NCBI GenBank assembly: GCA_048881705.1
Contig: JBHLSH010000001.1
Location: 96,001-160,000, forward strand
Origin: Candidatus Heimdallarchaeota archaeon
GTDB lineage: Archaea > Asgardarchaeota > Heimdallarchaeia > Hodarchaeales > Hodarchaeaceae
Direction: 5' to 3'
DNA length: 64,000 nucleotides
Of this stretch, positions 3,331-52,121 are shown one piece after another. The position numbers and the translations under genes were made by a program. Position 1 is the first letter of the stretch. Every line of letters starts with the position of its first letter. The notes below the pieces were generated by a model. That model had not been told where the DNA came from, did not search any database, and worked only from the letters and a program-made list of their open reading frames with translations.

Positions 3331-4647
3331 ATGAGCAAAAGTAGAGCCTTAATCCTTAAAGCTGACGAATTGCCGACCAAGTGGTATAATGTTGTGCCAG
3401 ACTTACCAGAATCTCTTCCACCACCGAAGGATCCCCCAGAGGGGTATTCAAGAGTTAAAGACCTGCCAAATATGCTTTTAAAGGAATGCCTGAACCAAGA
3501 AATGTCAGATAAGCGGTGGTTTGACATTCCTGATGGAATACGAGAACTCTTCTTGGCAGCTGGTCGACCAAGACCTTTGTACCGGGCAAAGAATCTGGAA
3601 GCAAAACTGGGAACACCAGCCAAGCTCTATTTCAAATCCGAGTTTTTCAGTCCAACAGGAAGCCATAAGGTCAATACCGCCCTGGTGCAAGCCTATTATG
3701 CCAAAAAAGAAGGATTTGAAAGACTTACAACTGAAACAGGGGCAGGACAATGGGGAAATGCGCTCGCTTATGCTGCAAGTCTAAATGATTTAGAATGTAC
3801 GGTTTTTTGGGTCCGGGCCGTCTATCGGTGGAAAGAGCAAAGACGCAAGTTTATGCAGTTGTACGGAGCGGATGTATATGCTTCACCCAGTAAAAAAACG
3901 GAATTCGGTAACAAGCTCTATAAGGAAAATCCCAACCACAACGGATCTCTCGGAATTGCCATCTCAGAGGGCCTGGAAGAAGCAAAGAAATCCCCGGATG
4001 CGGTGTATTGTCTTGGTTCAGTTTTGAATCATGTCTTAATGCATCAGACTATAATTGGACTCGAGACTAAGAAGCAGTTTGAGATGGCGGGCGAATATCC
4101 TGACATGGTGATTTCATGTCTTGGTGGAGGTAGTAACTTTGGAGGTATCGCTATTCCTTTTTTGCATGATGTTCTCGCAAAAAAGTCAGAAATAACGTTC
4201 ATTGCTGCTCAAAGCCAAACAGCTCCCAATTTACAAGGAGAATACAAATACGATTTCGCCGACCACGCCGAAATGACCCCTATGCTTAAAATGTATACCT
4301 TGGGTCATCAAGTAACCATGCTACCCATAAAAGGAGACGGTTTACGATATCATGGGTGTGCTCCAATTCTGAGTTTATTAAGGCATCATGGATATATTGA
4401 TACCGTAGCATATCCACCAGAAGAGAAATACGTGTTTGAACGAGCAAAAGAATTCGTTCGAGCCGAAGGCTTCTTACCTGCACCGGAATCTGCGTACAGC
4501 ATTGCTTGTGCCATTGATGAGGCAATAAAATGTAAGAAAGAAAAAGAGGAGAAAACGATTCTTTTTAACGTCAGTGGTCATGGTTTCATGGATATGGACG
4601 GGTATGCAGAGATCCTTGGTTTGAAAGGAAACCCCGAAAAGTCATAG
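3331..4647 (+). CDS. trpB2: TrpB-like PLP enzyme (TrpB2, tryptophan synthase beta chain 2)
   Basis: LPTKWYN, GSHKVNTA, TTETGAGQWG, GSVLNHV, GGGSNFGG, GLRYHG and NVSGHG motifs. ATG at 3331 preferred over the track start at 3211, which overlaps the upstream gene. No trpA nearby. Confidence 0.93.
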   Translation: MSKSRALILKADELPTKWYNVVPDLPESLPPPKDPPEGYSRVKDLPNMLLKECLNQEMSDKRWFDIPDGIRELFLAAGRPRPLYRAKNLEAKLGTPAKLYFKSEFFSPTGSHKVNTALVQAYYAKKEGFERLTTETGAGQWGNALAYAASLNDLECTVFWVRAVYRWKEQRRKFMQLYGADVYASPSKKTEFGNKLYKENPNHNGSLGIAISEGLEEAKKSPDAVYCLGSVLNHVLMHQTIIGLETKKQFEMAGEYPDMVISCLGGGSNFGGIAIPFLHDVLAKKSEITFIAAQSQTAPNLQGEYKYDFADHAEMTPMLKMYTLGHQVTMLPIKGDGLRYHGCAPILSLLRHHGYIDTVAYPPEEKYVFERAKEFVRAEGFLPAPESAYSIACAIDEAIKCKKEKEEKTILFNVSGHGFMDMDGYAEILGLKGNPEKS

Positions 4648-4835: not shown

Positions 4836-5042
4836 TTAGGAAATCAGCCTGCGAGATATGAAATCAGAAAGTTTTCTCGGAGTTCGGGTCACAAACGCAT
4901 CCATGCCACATTCGCTACACTTGAGGCGTAGAGTATTGTGGTTAACGATGGTCGAAACCGTATGAGTTGTACAGAACGGACAAACTAACTCACGTTCTGC
5001 TTGATGGTGCAGATCCACATTTTCTTCTATTTCAACTGTCAT
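4836..5042 (-). CDS. Small zinc-ribbon protein (CPFC-x17-CSEC)
   Basis: Two CxxC knuckles; strong GGAGGT Shine-Dalgarno at 5054-5049 ahead of the ATG. Confidence 0.8.
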   Translation of the reverse strand: MTVEIEENVDLHHQAERELVCPFCTTHTVSTIVNHNTLRLKCSECGMDAFVTRTPRKLSDFISRRLIS

Positions 5043-5069
5043 GGTTTAACCTCCTGTTTTGATGAGGGT

Positions 5070-5179
5070 GGAAAACCTTCCTTCGAGGAATTTGTTTTCC
5101 GATACAGATATACTGTATCACGCCGACCGTCAGTCGGGAAACCTATGCCGGGTTGGCCGTGTAGGAAAGAACTTCCCAC
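5070..5179 (-). promoter_or_regulatory. Structured 5' leader (four adjacent hairpins) of the zinc-ribbon gene
   Basis: Stems at 5070-5076/5094-5100, 5101-5107/5113-5119, 5123-5127/5133-5137 and 5161-5167/5173-5179. A TATA-like TTTAAATA lies about 25 nt upstream on the minus strand. Confidence 0.5.
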
Positions 5180-5190
5180 TAGGTAATGAT

Positions 5191-5252
5191 GTAATACATT
5201 ACGATATTTAAATATTTATGGGTAATTAATCCCTGATAATGTAATTTATTAC
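5191..5252. promoter_or_regulatory. Palindromic TATA-like element flanked by two GTAAT-N2-ATTAC inverted repeats (candidate operators)
   Basis: GTAATACATTAC at 5191-5202, ATATTTAAATAT at 5204-5215, GTAATTTATTAC at 5241-5252, and a degenerate GTAATTAATCC at 5222-5232. Confidence 0.55.
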
Positions 5253-5450
5253 ACCAATGACCGAAGAATTGCGCTTTTCAAGAGGAAGTATTATGGTTTA
5301 AATCAAAGATTATGCGATCTTCTTCAAATAACGTGGCTTAAAACATTTTCCATAGCGGTTTCAGGTAAAAATCTTGCCTTAGTAGTGACATTCATGTTTG
5401 GATATCTAGAAGTGGCAATAAGAGCTTTTATTATGGACAGTGGATAAATA

Positions 5451-6167
5451 ATGGCTTCATACAAACCATTGAAGTGGCGCCCGTACGTCATACTTTCAGC
5501 AGCCGCTAGTTTGGACGGCAAACTGGCAACAGACGCGGGAGACACAAACCTCTCGACAAAAAACGATTGGAAAAGGGTTCATCTCCTACGAATGGAATCT
5601 GATGCAATCATGGTTGGTGGTGGGACAATCCGAAAGGATGACTCTAAATTGGTTGTTGATCCAAAAAAATCAGGTTCTCCAATATCACGGCAACCTATTC
5701 GCGTTGTTGTCAGTGCAACAGGGAATATCCCCCTCGATGCTAGGGTGATCACTCATGATCCAATCGTTCCCACGTTAATTGCCGTTACATCAAATTGCTC
5801 TGCTAGACAGGTTAAAAAACTCGAGGATGTTGGATGTCAGGTCATCCATTGTGGCAATGAACGCTCTGTAGATCTGTCTCTGCTCCTGAGCATCTTAAAA
5901 ACTAAGTTTATGGTGAATCGTTTAATGTTGGAAGGTGGAGGAAGACTGAATGGATCTATGCTGTCTTTAAAATTGATAGATGAACTTCAAATAGCATATG
6001 CCCCGGTTATTGCGGGAAACGGTGTTTCATTATTCGAATTTTCCCAATCATTTCAAGATTTCTCTGAATCCCCATTTTTTGAGATAATCACTTCTAGACG
6101 GATCGATGACATGCTCTGGATCCACTTTAAAGTTCATTATACTCCACGGCAGCTTATCTGCTTATAA
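5451..6167 (+). CDS. RibD C-terminal-type reductase (archaeal riboflavin-pathway pyrimidine reductase-like)
   Basis: PYVILSAAASLDGKLA, DAIMVGGGTIRKDD and MLEGGGRLNGSML...IDEL motifs; no deaminase domain. Confidence 0.88.
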   Translation: MASYKPLKWRPYVILSAAASLDGKLATDAGDTNLSTKNDWKRVHLLRMESDAIMVGGGTIRKDDSKLVVDPKKSGSPISRQPIRVVVSATGNIPLDARVITHDPIVPTLIAVTSNCSARQVKKLEDVGCQVIHCGNERSVDLSLLLSILKTKFMVNRLMLEGGGRLNGSMLSLKLIDELQIAYAPVIAGNGVSLFEFSQSFQDFSESPFFEIITSRRIDDMLWIHFKVHYTPRQLICL

Positions 6168-6173
6168 TTTCAA

Positions 6174-7058
6174 TTAAATGAGAAAGAGGTTTAATACGAG
6201 CACCGCTCCAGAATAGATGACCGAGATTATCACGGGCTGATTTCCTTCTGGAACCATTGACTTAACCCCCCAGTACACCATTAAACCTCCCCAAATGAGC
6301 ACACCAATACCGATCCCGAGTAGAATCAATTCAGCGAAGCCCGAAACGGCAGGTATAGCGATTTTTTGGATATCCTCAGAAGTTCTAAGGACTACTGTCA
6401 TTTCTGAGACAAAAAACCAGTTATAACCGATATCAACTATCTGTCCTACGAATTGTGGCACAGATGCCCATCCTGTAATGGTTGCTGCTGTTTTAAAGTT
6501 CCGTCGATGAGAGGAAACTGCAGGGGCTACTACAGCCATAAGCAGGTAGAGAATTACACTATCAACCAGCCATGATATAATAGGGCCAAGTACGGAGAGA
6601 ATGATAAAGGTGAACCGTAGGTAGGACTCAAAATCAAATTCATCATAGAAGCTGGCTGGTAGATCAACTCCGGCTATATTTTGATAGAATTCTGGAAAAA
6701 TAGTCATTCTAAGCTTTGAGAGGAAAACAGCCATCGATACTCCCGCAAGAATTCCTATCAACAAGCTCAAGAAAAAGGGGTGTTTGTAGTTTGGTCTTTC
6801 CACGATTTTCGGCATTTCTTTTTGAGGGGTGATAATCACACCTTGAAAATATTGTAAAAACGGAAGAGGGGGTTCCGTGTGGCTCATTGCTGGCCTGGAG
6901 GTAATGTAATATGGAGATGCTGGAATTTGAGAAAGCGATTGGGGTCCTAACTTTGGTACTGGAGCTCCACAGTGTGCACAGAAAGCGGCACCAGGCAAGA
7001 GTTCTTTTCCACAAGATCCACAGTATTTGGGAGAGGTAGTATCGGAATTCATCGCCAT
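6174..7058 (-). CDS. Zinc-ribbon plus Yip1-domain membrane protein
   Basis: N-terminal CGSC...CAHC ribbon. Then GVIITPQKEMPKI and about five hydrophobic helices, with F..AATITGWASVP and WGGLMVYWGVK patterns typical of Yip1 domains. ATG at 7058 chosen. Confidence 0.7.
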   Translation of the reverse strand: MAMNSDTTSPKYCGSCGKELLPGAAFCAHCGAPVPKLGPQSLSQIPASPYYITSRPAMSHTEPPLPFLQYFQGVIITPQKEMPKIVERPNYKHPFFLSLLIGILAGVSMAVFLSKLRMTIFPEFYQNIAGVDLPASFYDEFDFESYLRFTFIILSVLGPIISWLVDSVILYLLMAVVAPAVSSHRRNFKTAATITGWASVPQFVGQIVDIGYNWFFVSEMTVVLRTSEDIQKIAIPAVSGFAELILLGIGIGVLIWGGLMVYWGVKSMVPEGNQPVIISVIYSGAVLVLNLFLI

Positions 7059-32376: not shown

Positions 32377-33009
32377 GTGCATTCTTCGGTTCGACTTGTT
32401 AAGAAAAGGCTTCAATTAAGTCAAAAAAAGTGGAACCAAATCCAAAACCACTCATTACGGACAGTTAATTCGATCCTAACAGTACTTTCACGACTGAATA
32501 TGATTCAAGCGAGACCCGAGGTTTTTTCTGAACTGTTATTAAAGGAATTCGTGGATATACCAGATCGCCTTGCATATCGACTTGCTGACATTATCAATAA
32601 AAACCTTGCAGACTTGAATCGCTATCTCTCTCAATTTTCAGATGTATTAAAAGAGATGCGGAAAATCGAAACACAATTTCGGCTTGATTTTTCAGAGCTT
32701 GCCAAGAAAAAGGTTTTAGGTGAAAACCCTGTTGGAGGAGAGCATGATCTGGAGGTTATTGAGCAGGCTGAGCTGACTATCCAAAAGATCGTAGATATGT
32801 ACGAAACGGAATTGTCTCTTCGTCAGGCAATCATTGCTGAAATTCAGGATATGACAGCCTTACAACCAGCTCATATCACGGCTTACTTGGTCTTATGGTC
32901 TTCCGAAATCTATATCGAGCCAAACAAGATCGTCGAGCTGATTGAAGAGTTTACCCACGTTGAGAAAATCTATCGCCAATCCTATGATTCTTTACCAAAA
33001 TCACGCTGA
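32377..33009 (+). CDS. All-helical protein, candidate C1orf109/AIRIM (CA109-like) homolog
   Basis: KKWNQIQ...NSILTVLSRLNMIQ...LKEFVDIPDRL...DMYETELSLRQAII...LVLW pattern; resemblance recalled from memory only. Confidence 0.55.
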   Translation: MHSSVRLVKKRLQLSQKKWNQIQNHSLRTVNSILTVLSRLNMIQARPEVFSELLLKEFVDIPDRLAYRLADIINKNLADLNRYLSQFSDVLKEMRKIETQFRLDFSELAKKKVLGENPVGGEHDLEVIEQAELTIQKIVDMYETELSLRQAIIAEIQDMTALQPAHITAYLVLWSSEIYIEPNKIVELIEEFTHVEKIYRQSYDSLPKSR

Positions 33010-33014
33010 AGAAT

Positions 33015-34418
33015 TCAACTTGCGTGGTAATTTCCTCTGTGTAATAAGGTGTTAATTGACCCTTTTTGGAATTCTTGGATCAAAACTTGTTGAACTAGAT
33101 CATTAACGGCATATGCAGGTTCTCCTTGTCCCAGGAGGGTTTTAACTAGATTCATCGTAAATTCGAGATCTTTACGCGCATGATGTTCATTACCTTCTGC
33201 ATATATGGCTACTCCTCTAAGTTGTGCATTATCAGGGCCGGTTTGGGAAGTAAACACACATTGTTTGTCGCCAGCGGTCAAATGATCTGGAGTATGTCCA
33301 ATGAGATCGGAACTCATTGATTGAATTGCCGAAAATAACCCCGTGTACAAACAAACTTCTTGCCCAGCTGGACGATGGCTAGCAAAAAGAGGTAACCCTC
33401 CATCTTCAAAGATATAGACTTCGGACTCAGTAAAAATCTGTCCTAGTACTTTGTATCGCCCATCTTCATCTGGGGAGTTTTCTATATCTAAAACGCTAGT
33501 ATCGACACCATTAACGCCTTGTGAAGTATCCAGCGAGGTTATCAAGCTATCTATCTCTTGGAGCGGGGCTGGCAATACTGCTTCGATCGGATGGTTATCT
33601 GTCAGCATGAGAGCCATTGTATATTCGGGAAAACAAGACCCTACTACATTCGAAAAATGATTTTGGAGATCTTTTCCAAATGTGGTCGAGAGTCGCCCAA
33701 CAATTCTGTTCATTTCTTTCAAACTTAAAGGATCCTGCGAATGGACAGTAACGAAGAGAGTTTCGAGTTTTTCAAGGTTTTCTGGTTGACTTATAGCCAA
33801 CATCTGTCCTGCCTTATCTATTGCATCCATCGTACAAGTTTCAAGGGCGGGAGATGATGAAAATCCGTAGAATAATTGTTCTGTGTTTCCAAAAATCTGA
33901 ATGAGATCAGAAAACGTTACACCCAATCCCTTTGGAGATTGAAAAACTGAGATAATGGAATCTAGAAGTACTAGAAATTCCCAACGAGATTGTTCTTCTT
34001 TGGAATCTAGGTGGAAATAGCTTCCTGGAATTAATTTGTGATCTTCCTTTTCGAAACCCGTTCCTATGTCAATCAAAAGAGGGATTGCCCCATTACTTCG
34101 GATTGAGTCAAGAACTCGCATCAGGATTGGAAGTGTAGTTGTATCAGAGGAATTAAAAATAAATAGCAAAAAATAGGCGTTTAATAGATTATGTACTTGC
34201 GACAAAACGGCTTCAGAATTGAAAACAATTATTTGATCACACAGATCATCCGAGACAGGATGAGCGGTAAGGTGCAATAGTGGCAGACGCGCCTCTTCTC
34301 TTACATCCAAGTACTCTCGGATGATATCCAAGGCGGAAGGAATATCTCCGATGCAGACTATTTTTCCACGAGGTCGAAAATACCCTAATAGGGCACTATC
34401 TTCAATAGTCATGTTCAA
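33015..34418 (-). CDS. Degenerate FtsZ/tubulin-like domain fused to a C-terminal longin-like domain
   Basis: KIVCIG; LLFIFNSSDTTTLPIL in place of GGGTGTG; SPKGLGVTFSDL in place of PGLINVDFAD; TLFVTVHSQDPLSLKEM...YTMALMLT (FtsZ C-domain). Then EVYIFEDGGLPLF...LYTGLFSAIQSMS. Confidence 0.65.
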   Translation of the reverse strand: MNMTIEDSALLGYFRPRGKIVCIGDIPSALDIIREYLDVREEARLPLLHLTAHPVSDDLCDQIIVFNSEAVLSQVHNLLNAYFLLFIFNSSDTTTLPILMRVLDSIRSNGAIPLLIDIGTGFEKEDHKLIPGSYFHLDSKEEQSRWEFLVLLDSIISVFQSPKGLGVTFSDLIQIFGNTEQLFYGFSSSPALETCTMDAIDKAGQMLAISQPENLEKLETLFVTVHSQDPLSLKEMNRIVGRLSTTFGKDLQNHFSNVVGSCFPEYTMALMLTDNHPIEAVLPAPLQEIDSLITSLDTSQGVNGVDTSVLDIENSPDEDGRYKVLGQIFTESEVYIFEDGGLPLFASHRPAGQEVCLYTGLFSAIQSMSSDLIGHTPDHLTAGDKQCVFTSQTGPDNAQLRGVAIYAEGNEHHARKDLEFTMNLVKTLLGQGEPAYAVNDLVQQVLIQEFQKGSINTLLHRGNYHAS

Positions 34419-44432: not shown

Positions 44433-45074
44433 TTAGTTTGTCTTCCTCACTTCTTTCCTGATATCCGGCAGGTTTTTTAGTTCCTCCAGCCCCCGATTTA
44501 GCTCCCCTTCCAATTCCTTAATCTTTTTTTGTAGAAAGTCAATGGTGGTCTGGTTATCCTTCTGTGCCAATTCGTCTCCGCATGAGGCGCATATGAACCC
44601 CATTTCAAAGGCATCTGAAAATGTTACGGGGGAATGTCCCTCCTGGCAAGCATAAAGGAGATTTCTCTGTTCATAATCTAAACGTTGTCGTAATTTCTTT
44701 AGACTAAGTTTTCGGCGGCTTATAATCAGATCTCGTATTCGCTCCCAGATAGGAGACCAATAGTATACAAAATAGCCGGTTTCCTTATCGCGCACGCGCC
44801 TATAACGAGCCAAAGACCTTTCATTCAATTTGTACAACGATTTTCTTACTTCCTTTAGGGCGATACGAGAACTCTCATTTATGGCATCATCGGGTTGGGA
44901 TGAAGGAACTTCCGATTTTTCTTCGATCTCTTCATTGAGAAGGTTTACGATTTGTTCGTCAATAATTTCCTTCTGGTTTAGCAGGATATTAAGAACACTC
45001 ACAGTCACGGGATCTGTGAGTTTTAGCATTATGTCGTTTAACTGCGAAAAACGCATAAATATGACCCGTGTCAC
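44433..45074 (-). CDS. tfe: Transcription factor E (TFE alpha)
   Basis: EVRKSLYKLNERSLARYRRVRDKETGYFVYYW; zinc finger YACQEGH...FSDAFEMGFICASCG. Confidence 0.95.
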   Translation of the reverse strand: MTRVIFMRFSQLNDIMLKLTDPVTVSVLNILLNQKEIIDEQIVNLLNEEIEEKSEVPSSQPDDAINESSRIALKEVRKSLYKLNERSLARYRRVRDKETGYFVYYWSPIWERIRDLIISRRKLSLKKLRQRLDYEQRNLLYACQEGHSPVTFSDAFEMGFICASCGDELAQKDNQTTIDFLQKKIKELEGELNRGLEELKNLPDIRKEVRKTN

Positions 45075-45196: not shown

Positions 45197-45676
45197 CTAG
45201 AAGTTTTCCAACTCTTTTAACGCCGCCATTATGGATTGAGATTCCGGCTTCTTAATCTTTACTGCTGGTTCCGTTAATTTTCCCATCAACATGGCCAAGG
45301 CCTCTGATGTTTCCTTCATACGAACGCGTACCAGGCCTAGCTGGGCATCAGGCTCGGCTACCACGACGAGAATCCCCCTATCCCCTGATTGAGCGGTCAA
45401 TATTTTACCATCAGTGAATTCAGCAAGCATGACGGACAGATTTCCTAGTGCCAGCGCACTACCTTGTTCTGCTGCACCACAGAAGACTGCTGAAGCAATT
45501 GCACCAATGCTCTCTAGATCAAATGCTCCCATTGTTTCGGAAACGAGCAAACGTGATGCACGCGCAATAGTAAGACCTGTACGATCCCCGAGTAACGTCA
45601 CCTTGATAGATGTGTCACTTTTAAGTAGCCGGGACAGTTCTGCGTTGATTTCATTCTTCTGCAAAACAGGATTCAC
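45197..45676 (-). CDS. Roadblock/LC7 (MglB-like) protein
   Basis: TLLGDRTGLTIA...IGAIASAVFCGAAEQG...MLAEFTDGKIL...AQLGLVRVRM. Confidence 0.9.
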   Translation of the reverse strand: MNPVLQKNEINAELSRLLKSDTSIKVTLLGDRTGLTIARASRLLVSETMGAFDLESIGAIASAVFCGAAEQGSALALGNLSVMLAEFTDGKILTAQSGDRGILVVVAEPDAQLGLVRVRMKETSEALAMLMGKLTEPAVKIKKPESQSIMAALKELENF

Positions 45677-45773: not shown

Positions 45774-46493
45774 CTAGAGTACAACAATGACAATTACAAG
45801 GGCAATTACTGACCCCGCCAACAGAGCCAATAATGTACGGTTCTGGGTCAGTTTTCTCGAAATTTTCCCTAATGTTGATTGAACTTTCTGCAATTTAGAA
45901 TTTACTTCGTTAATTTTTGTATCGATTTTATCGATTTTAACTCCCTGTTCATCCAAACGCCGAGCTAGGGTACCTAGATTCTGGGATATTTGGGTTATCT
46001 GTTCATTCATCCTATCCATAGAAGTTAAAAAGGAATTTTCAAGCATTTGGAGGCGTTCTTCTAGAGTTCCCACATTTTTAGAGGAAATTGCTTCTCCTGG
46101 ATATGCAATTTCATAAATCCGGGTACCAACACCCGTTTGTTCTTGGGGGCTCGCTCTTAAATCCATAGTTTCGATTGATTCGCTGATTTCTCCCAACGTT
46201 CCACGAAGTAGCTGCATTTTTCGTTTTGTTTCATCAATTTCCCTAATCTTTTCATTTTGTTTTTTGATATCTCCTGGTTGAAGAAAACGAGGCATAGATG
46301 CAAGTAATTTGGATGTCAATGAGCGTTTCTGGACCACTTGTTCTGACATTCCTCCCGAAAGATCAGCAGCCATTCCTTCCATCGATTCTAAGACAGAGTC
46401 TAAGTCATGAATGAAATTTACGAGAAGTTCTTTCTCGGTAGGTTCATCAGGTTTTTTAAACCATTTACTCAAACGTTTTGTAAAGACCGACAC
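45774..46493 (-). CDS. Tail-anchored Q-SNARE-like protein
   Basis: Helical N-domain; heptad res 159-211 with hydrophobic residues at all 15 outer layers around Q183 (RLDEQGVKIDKI); basic linker; terminal TM LLALLAGSVIALVIVIVVL. Confidence 0.8.
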   Translation of the reverse strand: MSVFTKRLSKWFKKPDEPTEKELLVNFIHDLDSVLESMEGMAADLSGGMSEQVVQKRSLTSKLLASMPRFLQPGDIKKQNEKIREIDETKRKMQLLRGTLGEISESIETMDLRASPQEQTGVGTRIYEIAYPGEAISSKNVGTLEERLQMLENSFLTSMDRMNEQITQISQNLGTLARRLDEQGVKIDKIDTKINEVNSKLQKVQSTLGKISRKLTQNRTLLALLAGSVIALVIVIVVL

Positions 46494-46671: not shown

Positions 46672-47946
46672 TTAGTAAATCAGGTTGCCGTTTTCAACCA
46701 CTAAACAGCCGTCCTTGAATACTTTCTCAGCTAGATTGATCCCATAATTGTAAGAAAAAAATTTGTGATTAGGAGCATTAAAAATCACAATATCCGCTCT
46801 TTTTCCCTCCTCAAGGCTTCCTATGTCATGAGCTCGATCGATAGAATGCGCTGCATTGATAGTTGCAGCGGTGAGCGCTTCGGCTGTTGTCATTTTCATT
46901 CGAAGAACACCAAGAGTCATCATCATCTGCATAGACTCGCACATATTTGCTGCACTTACATCGGTAGCTAAAGCGACAGGTAATCCCTTATCAATTATGG
47001 CACGGGCATCCGCGTAAGTCCCTACATAGCAGAATGGAGAAGTTGGTAAGAAGATGATAATAGTACCTTGATCCTTAAGAGCTTCCACTTCGTCCATTGG
47101 GGTGAATATCAGATGATCTACGGAGGTTACATCTCCTAAATCGGCAGCCAACTTAGCTCCCCCACTATGAGCCAACCAATCGCAGTGATTTCTTAATTTC
47201 AATCCGTATTTTCTACCCGTTTCCAAAATCCGACGGCTTTGTTCAAGGTTGTAGTAGCCTCTTTCGCAAAATACGTCTATATATTCGGCTAGTTTTCGTT
47301 TGGAGATCTCAGGGATCCATTTTTCGACAATTTCATCGACCAAGTCGTCCACCCGCTCTTCAAATTCTGGTGGTATCCCCTGTGCCAGAAAAGTTGGAAC
47401 GAGGTCAAGAGGATGGAGTTTATTCAGAGTGTTAATTATTTCCAGCTGTTTAATCTCCCCTTCGAAAGTCATTTCATATCCGCTTTTCGCTTCAATAGTG
47501 GTTGTTCCATGAATAAGCATCTTGTCTAGTATTTTGGAGGTTATTCCAATCTGTGTTTTAAAACTGGTCGCTGCAGTTTCTTTTAACGATTTATTCATAC
47601 CTCCGCCTTGAGCTTTAATCTCCAGATATGGAACACCTAATACAGCCATTTTTTCAAGTTCATCTTCTCTGGTACCAGCAAATACCAGATGGACATGAGG
47701 ATCGATTAATCCTGGAGTCACAAGTTTTCCTGCGGCATCTACAACTTCAAATCCTTTATTAAGATGATTTAAAACATCCTGCGTCTTTCCGACAGCAATT
47801 ATCCTCCCGTTTCTTACCGCTACGGCACCATCACGAATGATTCCCAATTCTCTCATTTTTGTTTTAACTCGAGGATCCTCACTTGACCCGTTAAGCGTTA
47901 CCAGTTCATTCGCATTAATAATAACGAAATCTGCTTCTAAAACCAT
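46672..47946 (-). CDS. hutI: Imidazolonepropionase
   Basis: TPGLIDPHVHLVFAGTREDE, GTTTIEAKSGY, DVFCE and ALATD motifs. ATG at 47946 chosen. Confidence 0.95.
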   Translation of the reverse strand: MVLEADFVIINANELVTLNGSSEDPRVKTKMRELGIIRDGAVAVRNGRIIAVGKTQDVLNHLNKGFEVVDAAGKLVTPGLIDPHVHLVFAGTREDELEKMAVLGVPYLEIKAQGGGMNKSLKETAATSFKTQIGITSKILDKMLIHGTTTIEAKSGYEMTFEGEIKQLEIINTLNKLHPLDLVPTFLAQGIPPEFEERVDDLVDEIVEKWIPEISKRKLAEYIDVFCERGYYNLEQSRRILETGRKYGLKLRNHCDWLAHSGGAKLAADLGDVTSVDHLIFTPMDEVEALKDQGTIIIFLPTSPFCYVGTYADARAIIDKGLPVALATDVSAANMCESMQMMMTLGVLRMKMTTAEALTAATINAAHSIDRAHDIGSLEEGKRADIVIFNAPNHKFFSYNYGINLAEKVFKDGCLVVENGNLIY

Positions 47947-47975
47947 TTTTACCACCCGTATTTCTATTGATGATC

Positions 47976-49304
47976 TTAAACATCTAAATATCTCTTTCTT
48001 TCCCACTCATGAACATAAACGTTGAAATCGTGCCATTCACGAGTTTTAACCTCGAGATATTTTTGGTAAAAATCCGAACCCAGTGATTCTTCAAGGTCGC
48101 GATCTTTTCGAAGGTGATAAAGCGCCTCTCCGAAATTTCCTGGAAGTGTTTCAATTCCTCTTTCCGTACGCTCATTGGGACTCATTTTATAGATATCCTC
48201 TTCAACAGCAGGAGGGGGTATTAGTTTCTTTTTGATGCCATCTAGTCCTGTTGCGAGTAGGGCAGCATAAGATAAATAAAAATTGCAGGAACCATCAGTA
48301 GGACGATACTCCAGCCGCGCGGCTTTCTTTTTTCCAGGTGGGATTCTAATCAGCGTTGAACGGTTATAATTGGCCCATGAAATGTAAACAGGGGCTTCCC
48401 ATCCCGGCACAAGGCGTTTATAAGAATTAACTGAGGGATTTGTTATGCCTGTCAGACCTTTTGCATGAGCAAGAATTCCTGCCATGAATCCTAACGCCAT
48501 ATCACTTAAGCCATGAGATTGAGCAGGATCCGCGAAAAGATTAACCTTGTTTTTATCATCCCGTAGATTAATATGGGTATGCAACCCTGCTCCGTATTCT
48601 CCGTGGAACGGCTTGGGCATAAAAGACGCGATGACTCCCTTTTTGGCAGCAATTATTTTTGTTAGGAATTTAACAAGATAAATAGTATCCGCCATTCGTA
48701 ATGCTTGATCGTAGGCCAAATTGAACTCGCTTTTTCCATGAGGAACCTCATGGTGATGTTTTTCAATTGCAATTCCTATTTGGCTAAAGTGTTTGGTCAT
48801 TTCAAGACGAAGCTCTGCACCACGATCTGCTGGGGGAGAAGCTAGATATCCTGCTTCATCGATCAGTTTGATTTTATCGTGTTCTCTCATTTCAAACAGG
48901 AAGAACTCGATTTCACTCGCCGTATAACTGTTGACATTAGCCCCTAATGTGCCTTGAATGTTCTTCAAAACCTTTTTCAAAATAAAACGGGGATCTAACT
49001 CGAATTGTTTGGTTGAATCTGGCTCGTACAAATCACAAACTACTCTTGCGACCCGTTGTGGAAACAAACCATGTGGAAGCACAATAAAACTACTGGGATC
49101 AGGTATCAACTTAACGTCACTCTTGCTGACATCAACCACTCCTAATGAACTACCATCCGTATGCATTCCTTCCTCAAAGATAGTCGAAAAATGCTTGACG
49201 GGAACCCAAAGCGTATGAAGGATACCCACTAGATCAGTGAATTGTAAAGCAATTTCTTCAACCTTTTCTCGTTCCATTACTTCCTCAACTTCATTAATAG
49301 GCAT
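47976..49304 (-). CDS. glnA: Glutamine synthetase type I family protein
   Basis: LQFTDLVG, DGSS, EIEFFLF, HHEV, MPKP...GAGLHTH, NSYKRLVPGWEAP, NRSTLIRIP and RLEYR motifs. Confidence 0.88.
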   Translation of the reverse strand: MPINEVEEVMEREKVEEIALQFTDLVGILHTLWVPVKHFSTIFEEGMHTDGSSLGVVDVSKSDVKLIPDPSSFIVLPHGLFPQRVARVVCDLYEPDSTKQFELDPRFILKKVLKNIQGTLGANVNSYTASEIEFFLFEMREHDKIKLIDEAGYLASPPADRGAELRLEMTKHFSQIGIAIEKHHHEVPHGKSEFNLAYDQALRMADTIYLVKFLTKIIAAKKGVIASFMPKPFHGEYGAGLHTHINLRDDKNKVNLFADPAQSHGLSDMALGFMAGILAHAKGLTGITNPSVNSYKRLVPGWEAPVYISWANYNRSTLIRIPPGKKKAARLEYRPTDGSCNFYLSYAALLATGLDGIKKKLIPPPAVEEDIYKMSPNERTERGIETLPGNFGEALYHLRKDRDLEESLGSDFYQKYLEVKTREWHDFNVYVHEWERKRYLDV

Positions 49305-49341
49305 GGATCAGGCTTCCTTATCCGATTTACTAACTTACAGG

Positions 49342-49357
49342 GATGGTTAAAACCATC
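49342..49357. promoter_or_regulatory. Perfect palindrome GATGGTT-AA-AACCATC between divergent glnA and M20 genes (candidate operator)
   Basis: Directly visible 7-2-7 inverted repeat in a 110-bp divergent intergenic region. Confidence 0.4.
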
Positions 49358-49414
49358 TTTTAAGGGGTTATTTATGAAGCCTGACCACGGAATGAATTCA
49401 AGGAGATATGGCAT

Positions 49415-50611
49415 TTGATATACCGAGATTTAAAACGTCAGATAATCCAAGAGGCCAGAGACTTGGAGGAGTACATCGTCCAAACACGTCGTCATCTCCA
49501 TATGCACCCAGAAACAGCATACGAAGAACATAAAACTGCAGATTATATTGAAAATGAACTAAAGAACCTTGGGTATGACACTGAAAGAACTGCGGGTACT
49601 GGGATCCTCGGAATCCTTAATAATGATTCTCAAGGAAAAACTGTGGCCTTACGGGCTGATATCGACGCGTTAAATATTACTGAGGAGAATGATATCCCAT
49701 ACAGAAGTAAAGTACCTGGAAAGATGCATGCCTGTGGACATGATGCTCATACAGCGATGTTATTAGGTGCGGCCAAAATTCTTTTCAAGTACCGAAAGGT
49801 TTTATCAGGTCCTCTGAAGCTGATATTTCAACCTGGGGAAGAAGGCAAAGCTGGGGCAAAGAAAATTGTAGAAGAGGGGCAGCTTGACAATGTGGACACG
49901 ATTTTTGGTCTTCATGTCTGGCAAGCATCATCATCGGGTGAAATAGCAACTGGGGCGGACGGGGCTTTATTTGCTTCCTCAGACCGTTTCACAATTAGAA
50001 TTTCTGGGATCGGGGGACATGCCGCAATGCCTCATGAAACTGTGGATCCGATTCCTGTACTTTTCGATATATACAATGCACTCCAAAAGGTAATTTCACG
50101 TGAGATAGATCCCTTTGAACCAGTTGTGTTAACCATGCCGCGGATCGTGGGGAGTAGTGCCCACAATATAATCCCATCGGTTGGGATCCTAAATGGAACG
50201 CTTCGAACACTAAATCCCAGGGTTCGCTCACGTATCTTGGATCGCCTTCAGGAGGTGGTCGTTGGATATTCACGAGCGTGGCGTTGCAAGGGATCAGTCA
50301 ATATTGATCCCCTAGGCTATCCGGCCTTGATCAATGACAAAGATACCACAAAGAAGATTATTACGATACTCCATGATCTAGATGAAGTAAAACCAGCACC
50401 CCCGAGTATGATTGGCGAGGATTTCGGATTTTATTTACAAAGAACCAAAGGAGTTTTTTTCACTCTAGGGATCTACAATAAAGAAAAAGGGATAATTTAT
50501 CCACACCATCATCCTCAATTTCAGGTAGACGAGTCGGTACTTTGGAAAGGAACCGCGATCTATGCCATTTCGGGCCTCTATTATTATTTCAGCTCGGATT
50601 TTGAACCATGA
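49415..50611 (+). CDS. M20D family amidohydrolase (carboxypeptidase / IAA-amino acid hydrolase-like)
   Basis: RRHLHMHPE, LRADIDAL, MHACGHDAH, FQPGEEG, EDFGFY and HHPQF motifs. TTG start 9 nt after AGGAG. Confidence 0.93.
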   Translation: MIYRDLKRQIIQEARDLEEYIVQTRRHLHMHPETAYEEHKTADYIENELKNLGYDTERTAGTGILGILNNDSQGKTVALRADIDALNITEENDIPYRSKVPGKMHACGHDAHTAMLLGAAKILFKYRKVLSGPLKLIFQPGEEGKAGAKKIVEEGQLDNVDTIFGLHVWQASSSGEIATGADGALFASSDRFTIRISGIGGHAAMPHETVDPIPVLFDIYNALQKVISREIDPFEPVVLTMPRIVGSSAHNIIPSVGILNGTLRTLNPRVRSRILDRLQEVVVGYSRAWRCKGSVNIDPLGYPALINDKDTTKKIITILHDLDEVKPAPPSMIGEDFGFYLQRTKGVFFTLGIYNKEKGIIYPHHHPQFQVDESVLWKGTAIYAISGLYYYFSSDFEP

Positions 50612-50630
50612 AATCTGGTTGGATTTTTAT

Positions 50631-52121
50631 CTACAGCTTTCGTTTTCGGATCAGTTGAACACATTTGGAAATGTCTGGGGCCAATTCTCGGTCATGTATT
50701 AAAGAGGAGACTACCTCACGGATTGTGGAGTGGGTTTTCTCAGTTTTTGGTGCAAGAATGTCTTTATTTTCGGCTAAATCTATGGCTTGTGCCGCGCATA
50801 GTAATTCAATGGCCAGGATGTTGTGCAAATTTTGAATTATTTTTCGAGTTTTTGACGCTGCGGATGTACCCATAGAAGAAAAATCTTCTTGGTTTGCAGA
50901 AACTGGAATTGAATCAACAGAGGCAGGAGACGCGAGATGGTTGTTTTCAGCAACCAATGAGGCGGCAGTATATTGGGCGATCATTAAACCAGAATTAGGC
51001 CCCGAAGTAGGGGCGAGAAAGGCAGGCAAACCACTAAGACTTGGATTTAACAAGCGTTCAACCCGTCGTTCTGAGATCGTTCCAATCCCTGTCATGGCTA
51101 GCCCCAAGAAATCCATTGCGATCGCAACAGGATGACCATGAAAATTTCCTCCAGAATAAATCTGATCGACCGAGAAAATCAGGGGATTATCAGTAGAAGA
51201 GTTCATTTCCACCTCTACCACGTTTTCGGTATATCGAACTGCATCTAAGATAGCTCCGTGGACTGCTGGAACACAACGCAAGGAATAAGCATCTTGGTGA
51301 GGTATCTGATGCCGAACGCTCTTACTTCCATCCAAAATATCCAATATTTCCTTCGCTACATCTATCTGACCAGGATGTGGGCGAGCTTGATGTATCAACG
51401 GATTTAAAGCATCAATATTGGCCCTGTGCACCTCCATACTCATCGCAGTTGCTAGATTAGCGATCCTGATTAGATATTTTGCGTCTGCAACTGCTAATGC
51501 GGCGATCGCTGTCATTGCTTGTGTTCCATTGAGTAAGGCTAGTCCATCTTTGGCTCCCAATCGAAGGGAGGTAAGCCCTACCTTTTTCAGAGCTGCTCTA
51601 CCAGTAATCCGTTGGCCACCAAAATCCACCCAACCTTTACCGATCAAAACCTGTGATAGATGTGCCAGCGGCGCAAGATCCCCACTCGCTCCAAGACTTC
51701 CCTGAGAGGGAACTACGGGGACAATATCGTGGTTTAATAGATCGACAAGGAGCTCGACCACTTCCAATCGTACCCCAGAATGTCCACGCACAAGTTTATT
51801 GATTTGTAATACCATCATTCCCCTAACTACTTCTAAGGGTAGTTCCAACCCTACCCCTGCGGAGTGACTAAGAACAAGGTTTTCTTGAAGTTGATATACA
51901 TCATCAGAAGACACCGGTACTTCCTGGAGATGTCCGAATCCCGTTGTAACACCATAAATTCGTCTATTCTGCTTCAAAACAGTTTGAACGATATTTGCGG
52001 CCTGTTCTATTCTTGAAACAACCTCGGACGCTATTTCTACTGCATATTTGTCTCGTGTTATCAAAATTATATCTGAAATAGTAAGAGATTCTCCATCTAA
52101 TGTAACGACTGGCTTTTCCAT
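50631..52121 (-). CDS. hutH: Histidine ammonia-lyase
   Basis: IYGVTTGFG, MIO triad in GSLGASGDLAPL, QDAYSLRC, DNPL, GGNFHG and SANQED motifs. Confidence 0.96.
   Translation of the reverse strand: MEKPVVTLDGESLTISDIILITRDKYAVEIASEVVSRIEQAANIVQTVLKQNRRIYGVTTGFGHLQEVPVSSDDVYQLQENLVLSHSAGVGLELPLEVVRGMMVLQINKLVRGHSGVRLEVVELLVDLLNHDIVPVVPSQGSLGASGDLAPLAHLSQVLIGKGWVDFGGQRITGRAALKKVGLTSLRLGAKDGLALLNGTQAMTAIAALAVADAKYLIRIANLATAMSMEVHRANIDALNPLIHQARPHPGQIDVAKEILDILDGSKSVRHQIPHQDAYSLRCVPAVHGAILDAVRYTENVVEVEMNSSTDNPLIFSVDQIYSGGNFHGHPVAIAMDFLGLAMTGIGTISERRVERLLNPSLSGLPAFLAPTSGPNSGLMIAQYTAASLVAENNHLASPASVDSIPVSANQEDFSSMGTSAASKTRKIIQNLHNILAIELLCAAQAIDLAENKDILAPKTEKTHSTIREVVSSLIHDRELAPDISKCVQLIRKRKL

Follow-up and report, generated by a model that had tools for sequence, protein, structure and literature searches.

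A SNARE-like tail-anchored protein of a Candidatus Heimdallarchaeota archaeon: near-certain orthology to HPS1 and probable homotetrameric assembly

Introduction

The locus analyzed here raises the question of whether an archaeal protein that joins a long heptad-like motif to a C-terminal membrane anchor is truly a SNARE and, if so, with which partner it would assemble. Eukaryotic SNAREs are heterotetramers with a 3Q:1R layer, and they are reliant on SM proteins, NSF and alpha-SNAP. Among archaea, the class Heimdallarchaeia is regarded as the nearest to eukaryotes. The DNA examined is a stretch of 64,000 nt (hereafter, the window) from Candidatus Heimdallarchaeota archaeon (GCA_048881705.1, JBHLSH010000001.1, positions 96,001-160,000), and an initial annotation of it had interpreted one gene product as a Q-SNARE, noting that SNARE-like tail-anchored proteins had been reported from Heimdallarchaeota and describing their native partners and function as unknown.

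The earlier reports are those on HPS1 and HPS2, members of a family described as the "Heimdallarchaeota prototypic SNAREs" (HPS) by Neveu et al. (bioRxiv 10.1101/810531) and taken up again by the same laboratory in Bentahar et al. (bioRxiv 10.64898/2026.10.19.760048, October 2026). The protein family is thus already known, crystal structure included, and the analysis reported here addresses the place of the present copy within it, the evidence for its mode of assembly and the conservation of its genomic context.

Results

A tail-anchored gene with a sixteen-layer motif

The gene is the one long ORF of its interval and occurs on the minus strand only, the plus strand being interrupted there by many stop codons (Table 1). 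The strand had gone unstated in the initial annotation, the rest of whose observation is exact. The GTG start falls in an alignment column common to 23 orthologues.

Layers -7 to +8 had been assigned to M159, M162, I166, I169, L173, L176, L180, Q183, I187, I190, I194, V197, L201, V204, L208 and I211, and a script that checked each of these residues found all sixteen as claimed, together with the core RLDEQGVKIDKI, which starts at residue 179, and the basic segment SRKLTQNRT, which starts at residue 212. The transmembrane (TM) helix placed at the extreme C-terminus was likewise borne out, because the final 20 residues (TLLALLAGSVIALVIVIVVL) are hydrophobic and terminate the protein, which also passed a one-TM tail-anchor filter run across the whole genome. 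As read from the sequence, the 3-4 spacing of the core extends past the motif through L215, N218, L222, L225, V229, L232 and I236.

Table 1. Features of the SNARE-like gene and its two downstream neighbors, in window coordinates
Feature	Coordinates	Strand	Basis or remarks
SNARE-like gene, tail-anchored, 239 aa, assigned as HPS1 orthologue	45774..46493	-	GTG start; stop codon 45774-45776; ORF list and translation
N-terminal helical hairpin, residues 20-109 (predicted helices 20-54 and 74-109)	46167..46436	-	AF2 model
YE(I/L)AYPGE loop, residues 127-134, joining N-terminal domain to motif	46092..46115	-	Conservation
SNARE motif, layers -7 to +8, residues 159-211 (53 residues)	45861..46019	-	Layer residues, conservation, model interface
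Zero-layer Gln183 codon (CAG)	45945..45947	-	Read from sequence
Basic juxtamembrane linker SRKLTQNR, residues 212-219	45837..45860	-	Highest conservation in the protein
C-terminal TM tail anchor, residues 220-239, without luminal tail	45777..45836	-	Hydrophobic run
Roadblock/LC7 gene, 97 bp downstream of the SNARE-like gene	45197..45676	-	Pfam Robl_LC7, 31.8 bits
TFE (TFIIE-alpha) gene, third in the syntenic run	44433..45074	-	Pfam TFIIE_alpha, 42.4 bits

Orthology to HPS1

The protein aligns over its 239 aa, without gaps, to HPS1 (PWI47941.1, archaeon B3-JM-08 / B3_Heim) at 64% identity, and the B3_Heim contig that encodes HPS1 (L027:6001-6720) was matched by tblastn with an E-value of 3e-93 in a scan of reference genomes. 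Identity amounts to 68% in the motif, 93% in the linker plus transmembrane domain (TMD) and 54% in residues 1-140, the 36% of residues that differ being located chiefly in the N-terminal domain. Both proteins have the same length and a motif spanning residues 159-211, with F155 and Q183 at identical numbers. Given this gap-free alignment and the matching F155 and Q183, the present protein is identified as the orthologue of the crystallized HPS1, and sequence comparison makes its membership in the HPS family close to certain.

A substantial body of work is therefore available for the orthologue. According to Neveu et al. (bioRxiv 10.1101/810531), HPS1, whose SNARE motif spans aa 159-211, enters into complexes with SNAREs of neurons. 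In the later study (Bentahar et al., bioRxiv 10.64898/2026.10.19.760048), HPS1 gave a mass of 34 kDa in SEC-MALS, consistent with a tetramer, and its 2.4 Å crystal structure is a homotetramer of parallel chains, in which the central one of the 16 layers is a ring of four Q183; it unfolded only above 90 °C, showed a core volume profile like that of eukaryotic bundles and localized to the ER in HeLa cells, while mouse NSF did not disassemble the complex. These experiments belong to HPS1, whereas the present copy is known from its sequence. The SNARE-like reading of the initial annotation is hence well founded, both in the architecture (helical N-terminal domain, 16-layer motif with a central Gln, short basic linker and tail anchor) and in the orthology to HPS1. 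The Q-SNARE typing, however, has to be given up, since the family falls outside Qa, Qb, Qc and R in the published trees (bioRxiv 10.1101/810531; bioRxiv 10.64898/2026.10.19.760048), and the native partner is no longer without a candidate, since HPS1 associates with itself into a tetramer, both in solution and when crystallized.

Conservation and distribution of the family

A word-indexed search returned 67 close relatives at 54-100% identity, and those that are named carry Hodarchaeota, Hodarchaeales or Heimdallarchaeota labels, save for one Thorarchaeota and one Promethearchaeota label. The closest genome record (L015, JBHLRO010000002.1, equivalent to G102:C2) bears the NCBI label 'Candidatus Thorarchaeota'; across the matched genes of a 12.7-kb segment, its proteins are 89-99% identical to those of the present locus. 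Because GTDB assigns it to the genus of a record labeled Heimdallarchaeota bin6, its label looks like a misassignment rather than a SNARE in the Thorarchaeia.

More distant relatives, at 27-39% identity, were added by exhaustive search and retain all layers and the QG core. HPS2 (OLS22354.1, Heimdallarchaeota LC_2) and the Heimdall- and Kari-type members have the same architecture as the present protein, but they are far more divergent and have other neighbors, and some of them present tandem paralogues or a His at layer 0. In a diverse alignment of 25 homologues (mean pairwise identity 33%, 19% for the least alike pair), the 15 hydrophobic layers are nearly all hydrophobic, with a few Ala, Thr and Cys at +3, +4 and +6, and layer 0 is Gln in 23 of the 25 sequences and His in the other two; among close homologues it is Gln in 23 out of 23. 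Since the layers are kept at such a mean identity, the pattern is, on the evidence of the alignment, more than chance. The two members with a zero-layer His, P0069 and P0082 (LEEHGMKLE and LGDHGVKLD), are both distant.

Conservation is uneven along the protein. Mean pairwise identity among close orthologues reaches 0.94 in the linker and 0.87 in the TMD (residues 221-239), as compared to 0.75 in the motif and 0.57 in the N-terminal domain. In the loop that precedes the motif, Y127, E128, P132, G133 and E134 are invariant across 23 Hodarchaeales-type orthologues, and the YE(I/L)AYPGE signature is largely retained in many more distant homologues too.

A survey of 301 genomes of the phylum located SNARE matches in five families of a single class, namely the family of the present genome (f1, 18/20 genomes), f2 (2/2), f4 (11/11), f5 (1/1) and f6 (3/3). 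No match was obtained in the remaining families of the class that were scanned (f3, 0/29; f7, 0/11), nor, with the exception of a weak one (E 3e-6), in other classes. This distribution agrees with the published account, according to which HPS genes are restricted to Heimdallarchaeia and usually found once per genome (Bentahar et al., bioRxiv 10.64898/2026.10.19.760048).

Tandem pairs of SNARE-like genes were observed in assemblies GCA_024276395.1 and GCA_048938655.1 and in genome G268, at L038:5001-5714 and 5774-6493, L039:4279-4932 and 5001-5717, and G268:C473:2993-3697 and 3760-4470. Two of the pairs were compared: the paralogues share 36% identity in one and 27% in the other, and Gln is kept at layer 0 in both. 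Bentahar et al. (bioRxiv 10.64898/2026.10.19.760048) name only two duplications, those of GCA_027018025 and GCA_027042105, one of which may or may not correspond to G268.

The N-terminal domain

The initial annotation had suggested that the helical N-terminal domain could be Habc-like. The domain is helical in the AF2 models, but no clear Habc fold emerges from them. Both the full-length model (pLDDT 67.6) and a model of residues 1-140 based on a 26-sequence alignment (pLDDT 77.8 overall) present instead a long two-helix hairpin (pLDDT ~90 in the latter model), followed by a weak third helix at residues 120-130. In the monomer model the motif is broken at residues 183-189 and folds back onto this hairpin, hinting, at moderate confidence, at a possible closed form of the protein. 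When searched with Foldseek and VIA-align, the full-length and N-terminal domain models drew only generic bundles and hairpins, with no SNARE or syntaxin chain among the matches listed; the best matches were an iron-binding four-helix bundle (Z 12.9) and, for the N-terminal domain, the hairpin of CHMP4B (Z 10.2).

Comparison with eukaryotic SNAREs and generic coiled coils

The protein resembles eukaryotic Q-SNAREs such as syntaxin-6, syntaxin-7 and the N-terminal Qb motif of SNAP-25 in its 16 layers, central Gln, basic linker and tail anchor. It differs from them in that a single gene would supply all the helices, its orthologue being a 4Q homotetramer that resists NSF, in that it has no Qa, Qb, Qc or R assignment, and in that its N-terminal domain is modeled as a hairpin and not as the three-helix bundle of Habc.

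The statistical support for a common origin is slender. The Pfam SNARE model (PF05739) scores 23.0 bits against the protein, below its cut-off of 26.8 bits; in a six-frame search the score was 26.4 bits, or 26.8 bits (equal to the cut-off) upon adding neighboring matches in frame. The same model matches 12 of 25 family members at E ≤0.01, with a best E-value of 4.8e-5. The core likeness to SNAP-25 (LDEQGEQL) pointed out in the initial annotation is real and in register, but it is weak, with a phmmer E-value of ~0.02 for the single sequence against the PDB. A profile of the family also matches SNAP-25 in register, and it aligns in register with syntaxin-7 (E 2.4e-3) and with syntaxin-6 (Qc, PDB 2NPS chain D, E 1.1e-3), the latter being its best natural SNARE match. 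In that search, syntaxin-6 is outscored by designed coiled coils and by reovirus sigma-1 (E 5.9e-5). In a separate comparison, PHROG families that include XhlA-like phage 'hemolysin' reach 20-24 bits (20.8 bits and E 7.6e-4 for the XhlA-like one). Sequence statistics by themselves are therefore, in our judgment, insufficient to argue homology to the eukaryotic SNAREs.

A metagenomic protein of 2716 aa, P0079, illustrates the specificity of such models. It comprises 16 motif-like stretches and surpasses the Pfam V-SNARE_C cut-off at 47.7 bits, yet it is a giant low-complexity repeat protein made up of TSVGTVNT...LGTTNTKLDTIN units and was rejected as a SNARE relative. The fact that P0079 passes the cut-off indicates that SNARE HMMs cross-react with periodic coiled coils, and the protein stands as a caution for SNARE calls based on HMMs.

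As to the cofactors of the eukaryotic system, Pfam searches of the 90.9%-complete genome gave no match to Sec1/Munc18 or Longin, but these negatives carry little weight, since the corresponding search controls matched nowhere. Matches to alpha-SNAP were weak (27.4 bits at most singly) and spread over many long open frames. The genome does encode a Get3/ArsA homologue (284.5 bits) and four Cdc48-like ATPases, which would fit a route for tail-anchor insertion and, possibly, for disassembly.

Taken at face value, the scores of generic coiled-coil families, the cross-reaction of SNARE HMMs with repeat proteins and the generic helical bundles returned for the monomer model would suit a convergent tail-anchored coiled coil, acting as a static cis-oligomeric scaffold or tether that is neither a fusogen nor an ancestor of eukaryotic SNAREs; the inertness of the HPS complex towards NSF and the failure to find Sec1/Munc18 can be read in the same direction. 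Such convergence would have to account, however, for the joint coincidence with SNAREs of a 16-layer length, a single central polar layer, a short linker and a tail anchor, for the fact that syntaxin-6 and SNAP-25 align in register with Q on Q, and for the restriction of the family to the archaeal class held closest to eukaryotes. Furthermore, HPS1 joins neuronal SNARE complexes, and its core volumes fit those of eukaryotic bundles. The XhlA-like phage 'hemolysin', along with further TM-anchored coiled coils (phrog_937 and phrog_1193), likewise places a TM helix at the C-terminus, after a coiled coil, and gives a similar HMM score, but the present gene lies outside any phage context. It is chromosomal, single-copy and conserved across five families within a single class, and the crystal of its orthologue shows a parallel tetramer. 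We thus consider a convergent scaffold unlikely, if still the most serious competitor of a SNARE. The initial annotation had weighed against its own reading a generic coiled coil unable to form four-helix complexes: coiled-coil families do score roughly on a par with the SNARE HMMs, but four-helix assembly is supported by the HPS1 crystal. With generic HMM support being weak, it is the orthology to a protein with a solved four-helix bundle, and not the HMMs, that decides the case for a SNARE.

Gene neighborhood

The SNARE-like, Roadblock and TFE genes follow one another on one strand in every one of the 17 related loci whose sequence extends downstream; the genes upstream vary. Across these loci the Roadblock protein is 80-99% identical, and the SNARE-Roadblock pair persists even in a lineage where the SNARE-like protein has dropped to 39% identity and Roadblock to 57%. 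Roadblock and TFE neighbors are also found on the B3_Heim contig, next to HPS1; the adjacency is mentioned in neither Neveu et al. nor Bentahar et al.

Such persistence invites the idea of a functional module in which the Roadblock/LC7 protein regulates SNARE assembly, in the manner of eukaryotic longin domains or GTPase platforms. The adjacency is nonetheless confined to one order (families f1 and f2), and other SNARE-bearing lineages have different neighbors; in one of them, the TFE gene lies 3 kb from the SNARE-like gene on the opposite strand, adjoining an unannotated 162-aa gene that was not identified as Roadblock. Moreover, Roadblock homologues (40-46% identity) occur in 277 of the 301 genomes of the phylum, including classes devoid of SNARE. 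Because they are present whether or not the SNARE is, the two genes show no co-distribution, and Roadblock was rejected as a co-evolving partner on these grounds. Hence, a regulatory module appears improbable, and the adjacency is better described as order-level synteny, with a functional link between both genes held to be similarly doubtful.

Upstream of the SNARE-like gene, window positions 46672-52121 harbor genes for an imidazolonepropionase-like amidohydrolase, a glutamine synthetase, an M20 peptidase and an aromatic amino acid (histidine ammonia) lyase, a cluster that is hut-like by Pfam annotation alone. In related loci, the amidohydrolase gene has its orientation switched or is located ~3.5 kb further away. 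Elsewhere in the window, positions 32377-33009 (plus strand) encode a 210-aa protein that matches Pfam CA109-like (ribosome biogenesis protein C1orf109-like) with 34.8 bits for a cut-off of 27; the 467-aa ORF beside it (33015-34418, minus strand) gave no Pfam match at E ≤0.01.

Assembly model and search for partners

The four-helix bundle that the initial annotation had proposed for modeling was built from four copies of residues 141-219 using the family alignment, in three runs and with three controls. The runs yielded ipSAE values of 0.82-0.83, as opposed to 0.00 for the best control, with pLDDT of 87-88 and at least 99% of contacts common to all of them. Contacts are parallel and in register (204:204, 197:197, 190:190), and all layer residues lie in the interface, so that the four-copy model (ipSAE 0.83) agrees with the HPS1 assembly. 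The mark used for ipSAE is reached by 20 of 30 solved homo-pairs and by 1 of 23 single chains, counts that apply only roughly to a tetramer because the calibration used two copies only, and the high score may reflect likeness to solved SNARE bundles. Short of proof, the model supports a parallel homotetramer of the present protein, and in conjunction with the crystal of its orthologue it makes this mode of assembly highly probable. A homotetramer is equally compatible with assembly in cis and in trans.

The search for R- or other Q-type partners advocated in the initial annotation came out empty. Within the genome (3.96 Mb; completeness 90.9%, contamination 7.5%), the SNARE-like gene is present once, and whole-genome searches with the protein, with PF05739 and with PF00957 (Synaptobrevin) revealed no second SNARE gene. 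A motif HMM run over 9296 ORFs and over 133 crude tail-anchored ORFs returned no convincing partner; among the latter, the present gene scored an E-value of 1.4e-36 and the next best one of 2.2. Three genomes searched by Neveu et al. (bioRxiv 10.1101/810531) likewise yielded no further SNARE-like protein with a tail anchor. With one copy and no second protein of this kind, the likely partner of the present protein is itself.

The motif HMM also picked out, with an E-value of 4.7e-4, a 290-aa protein (G000:C43:9457-10329, minus strand) with a zinc-ribbon-like CxxC pair at its N-terminus, joined by a long Pro-rich linker to a coiled coil of ~60 aa at its C-terminus. This protein is soluble, with no TM helix. 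It carries Ser at the layer-0 column and was set aside as a hidden partner, representing probably coiled-coil background.

A heteromer, in which the protein would contribute one helix to a SNARE complex completed by divergent R- or Q-type partners of the same genome, is accordingly very unlikely: a partner gene could be missing from an incomplete and partly contaminated assembly, tandem paralogues could give rise to heteromers in some other lineages and the soluble 290-aa protein does match the motif weakly, but no R-type candidate for a 3Q:1R QabcR complex turned up in the genome, a single match is the rule in 36 of 37 SNARE-bearing genomes, and HPS1 on its own is a very stable 4Q homotetramer.

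Discussion

Considered as a whole, the evidence is best explained by a tail-anchored, homotetrameric SNARE of the HPS family that would zipper membranes together, a reading to which we assign a probability of roughly 0.8. The proposed sequence of events would begin with the post-translational insertion of the hydrophobic C-terminal tail into the membrane, most likely by a Get3-type route, with the N-terminal hairpin and the motif of 53 residues remaining cytoplasmic. Four such motifs would then zip into a parallel, in-register bundle of 15 hydrophobic layers and a ring of four Gln183. If the copies resided in two membranes lying face to face, zippering in the direction of the anchors would draw these membranes together, as eukaryotic SNAREs do. 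The bundle being very stable, its recycling would call for an unfoldase, for which one of the four Cdc48-like ATPases is a candidate. That the cellular role is fusion or tethering is what we would infer from this scheme, at slightly less than even odds.

The linker and the TMD deserve separate consideration. Given their conservation, which exceeds that of the motif itself, and the continued 3-4 spacing beyond layer +8, the bundle may run on through the membrane. This proposal, in which the anchors would form a defined TM tetramer with Asn218 as a polar layer, the anchor would be active and, in Hodarchaeales, assembly would be under Roadblock control, is a speculative extension of the sequence pattern that we deem rather unlikely. 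Were it true, the anchor itself would share in the work of the machine, through force transmission or as a fusion-pore-like assembly, and the adjacent Roadblock protein of Hodarchaeales might control it.

As regards membrane fusion in the native cell, the present sequence makes the question no more testable than HPS1 does. The origin of membrane trafficking is the wider issue to which SNARE-like proteins from the archaea nearest to eukaryotes are relevant, a point already made, with structural support, for the HPS family. To this family, the present copy contributes another orthologue, the order-level synteny with Roadblock and TFE and a hyper-conserved linker and TMD, to which the tandem paralogues of other lineages and the His variants of layer 0 add further comparative detail.
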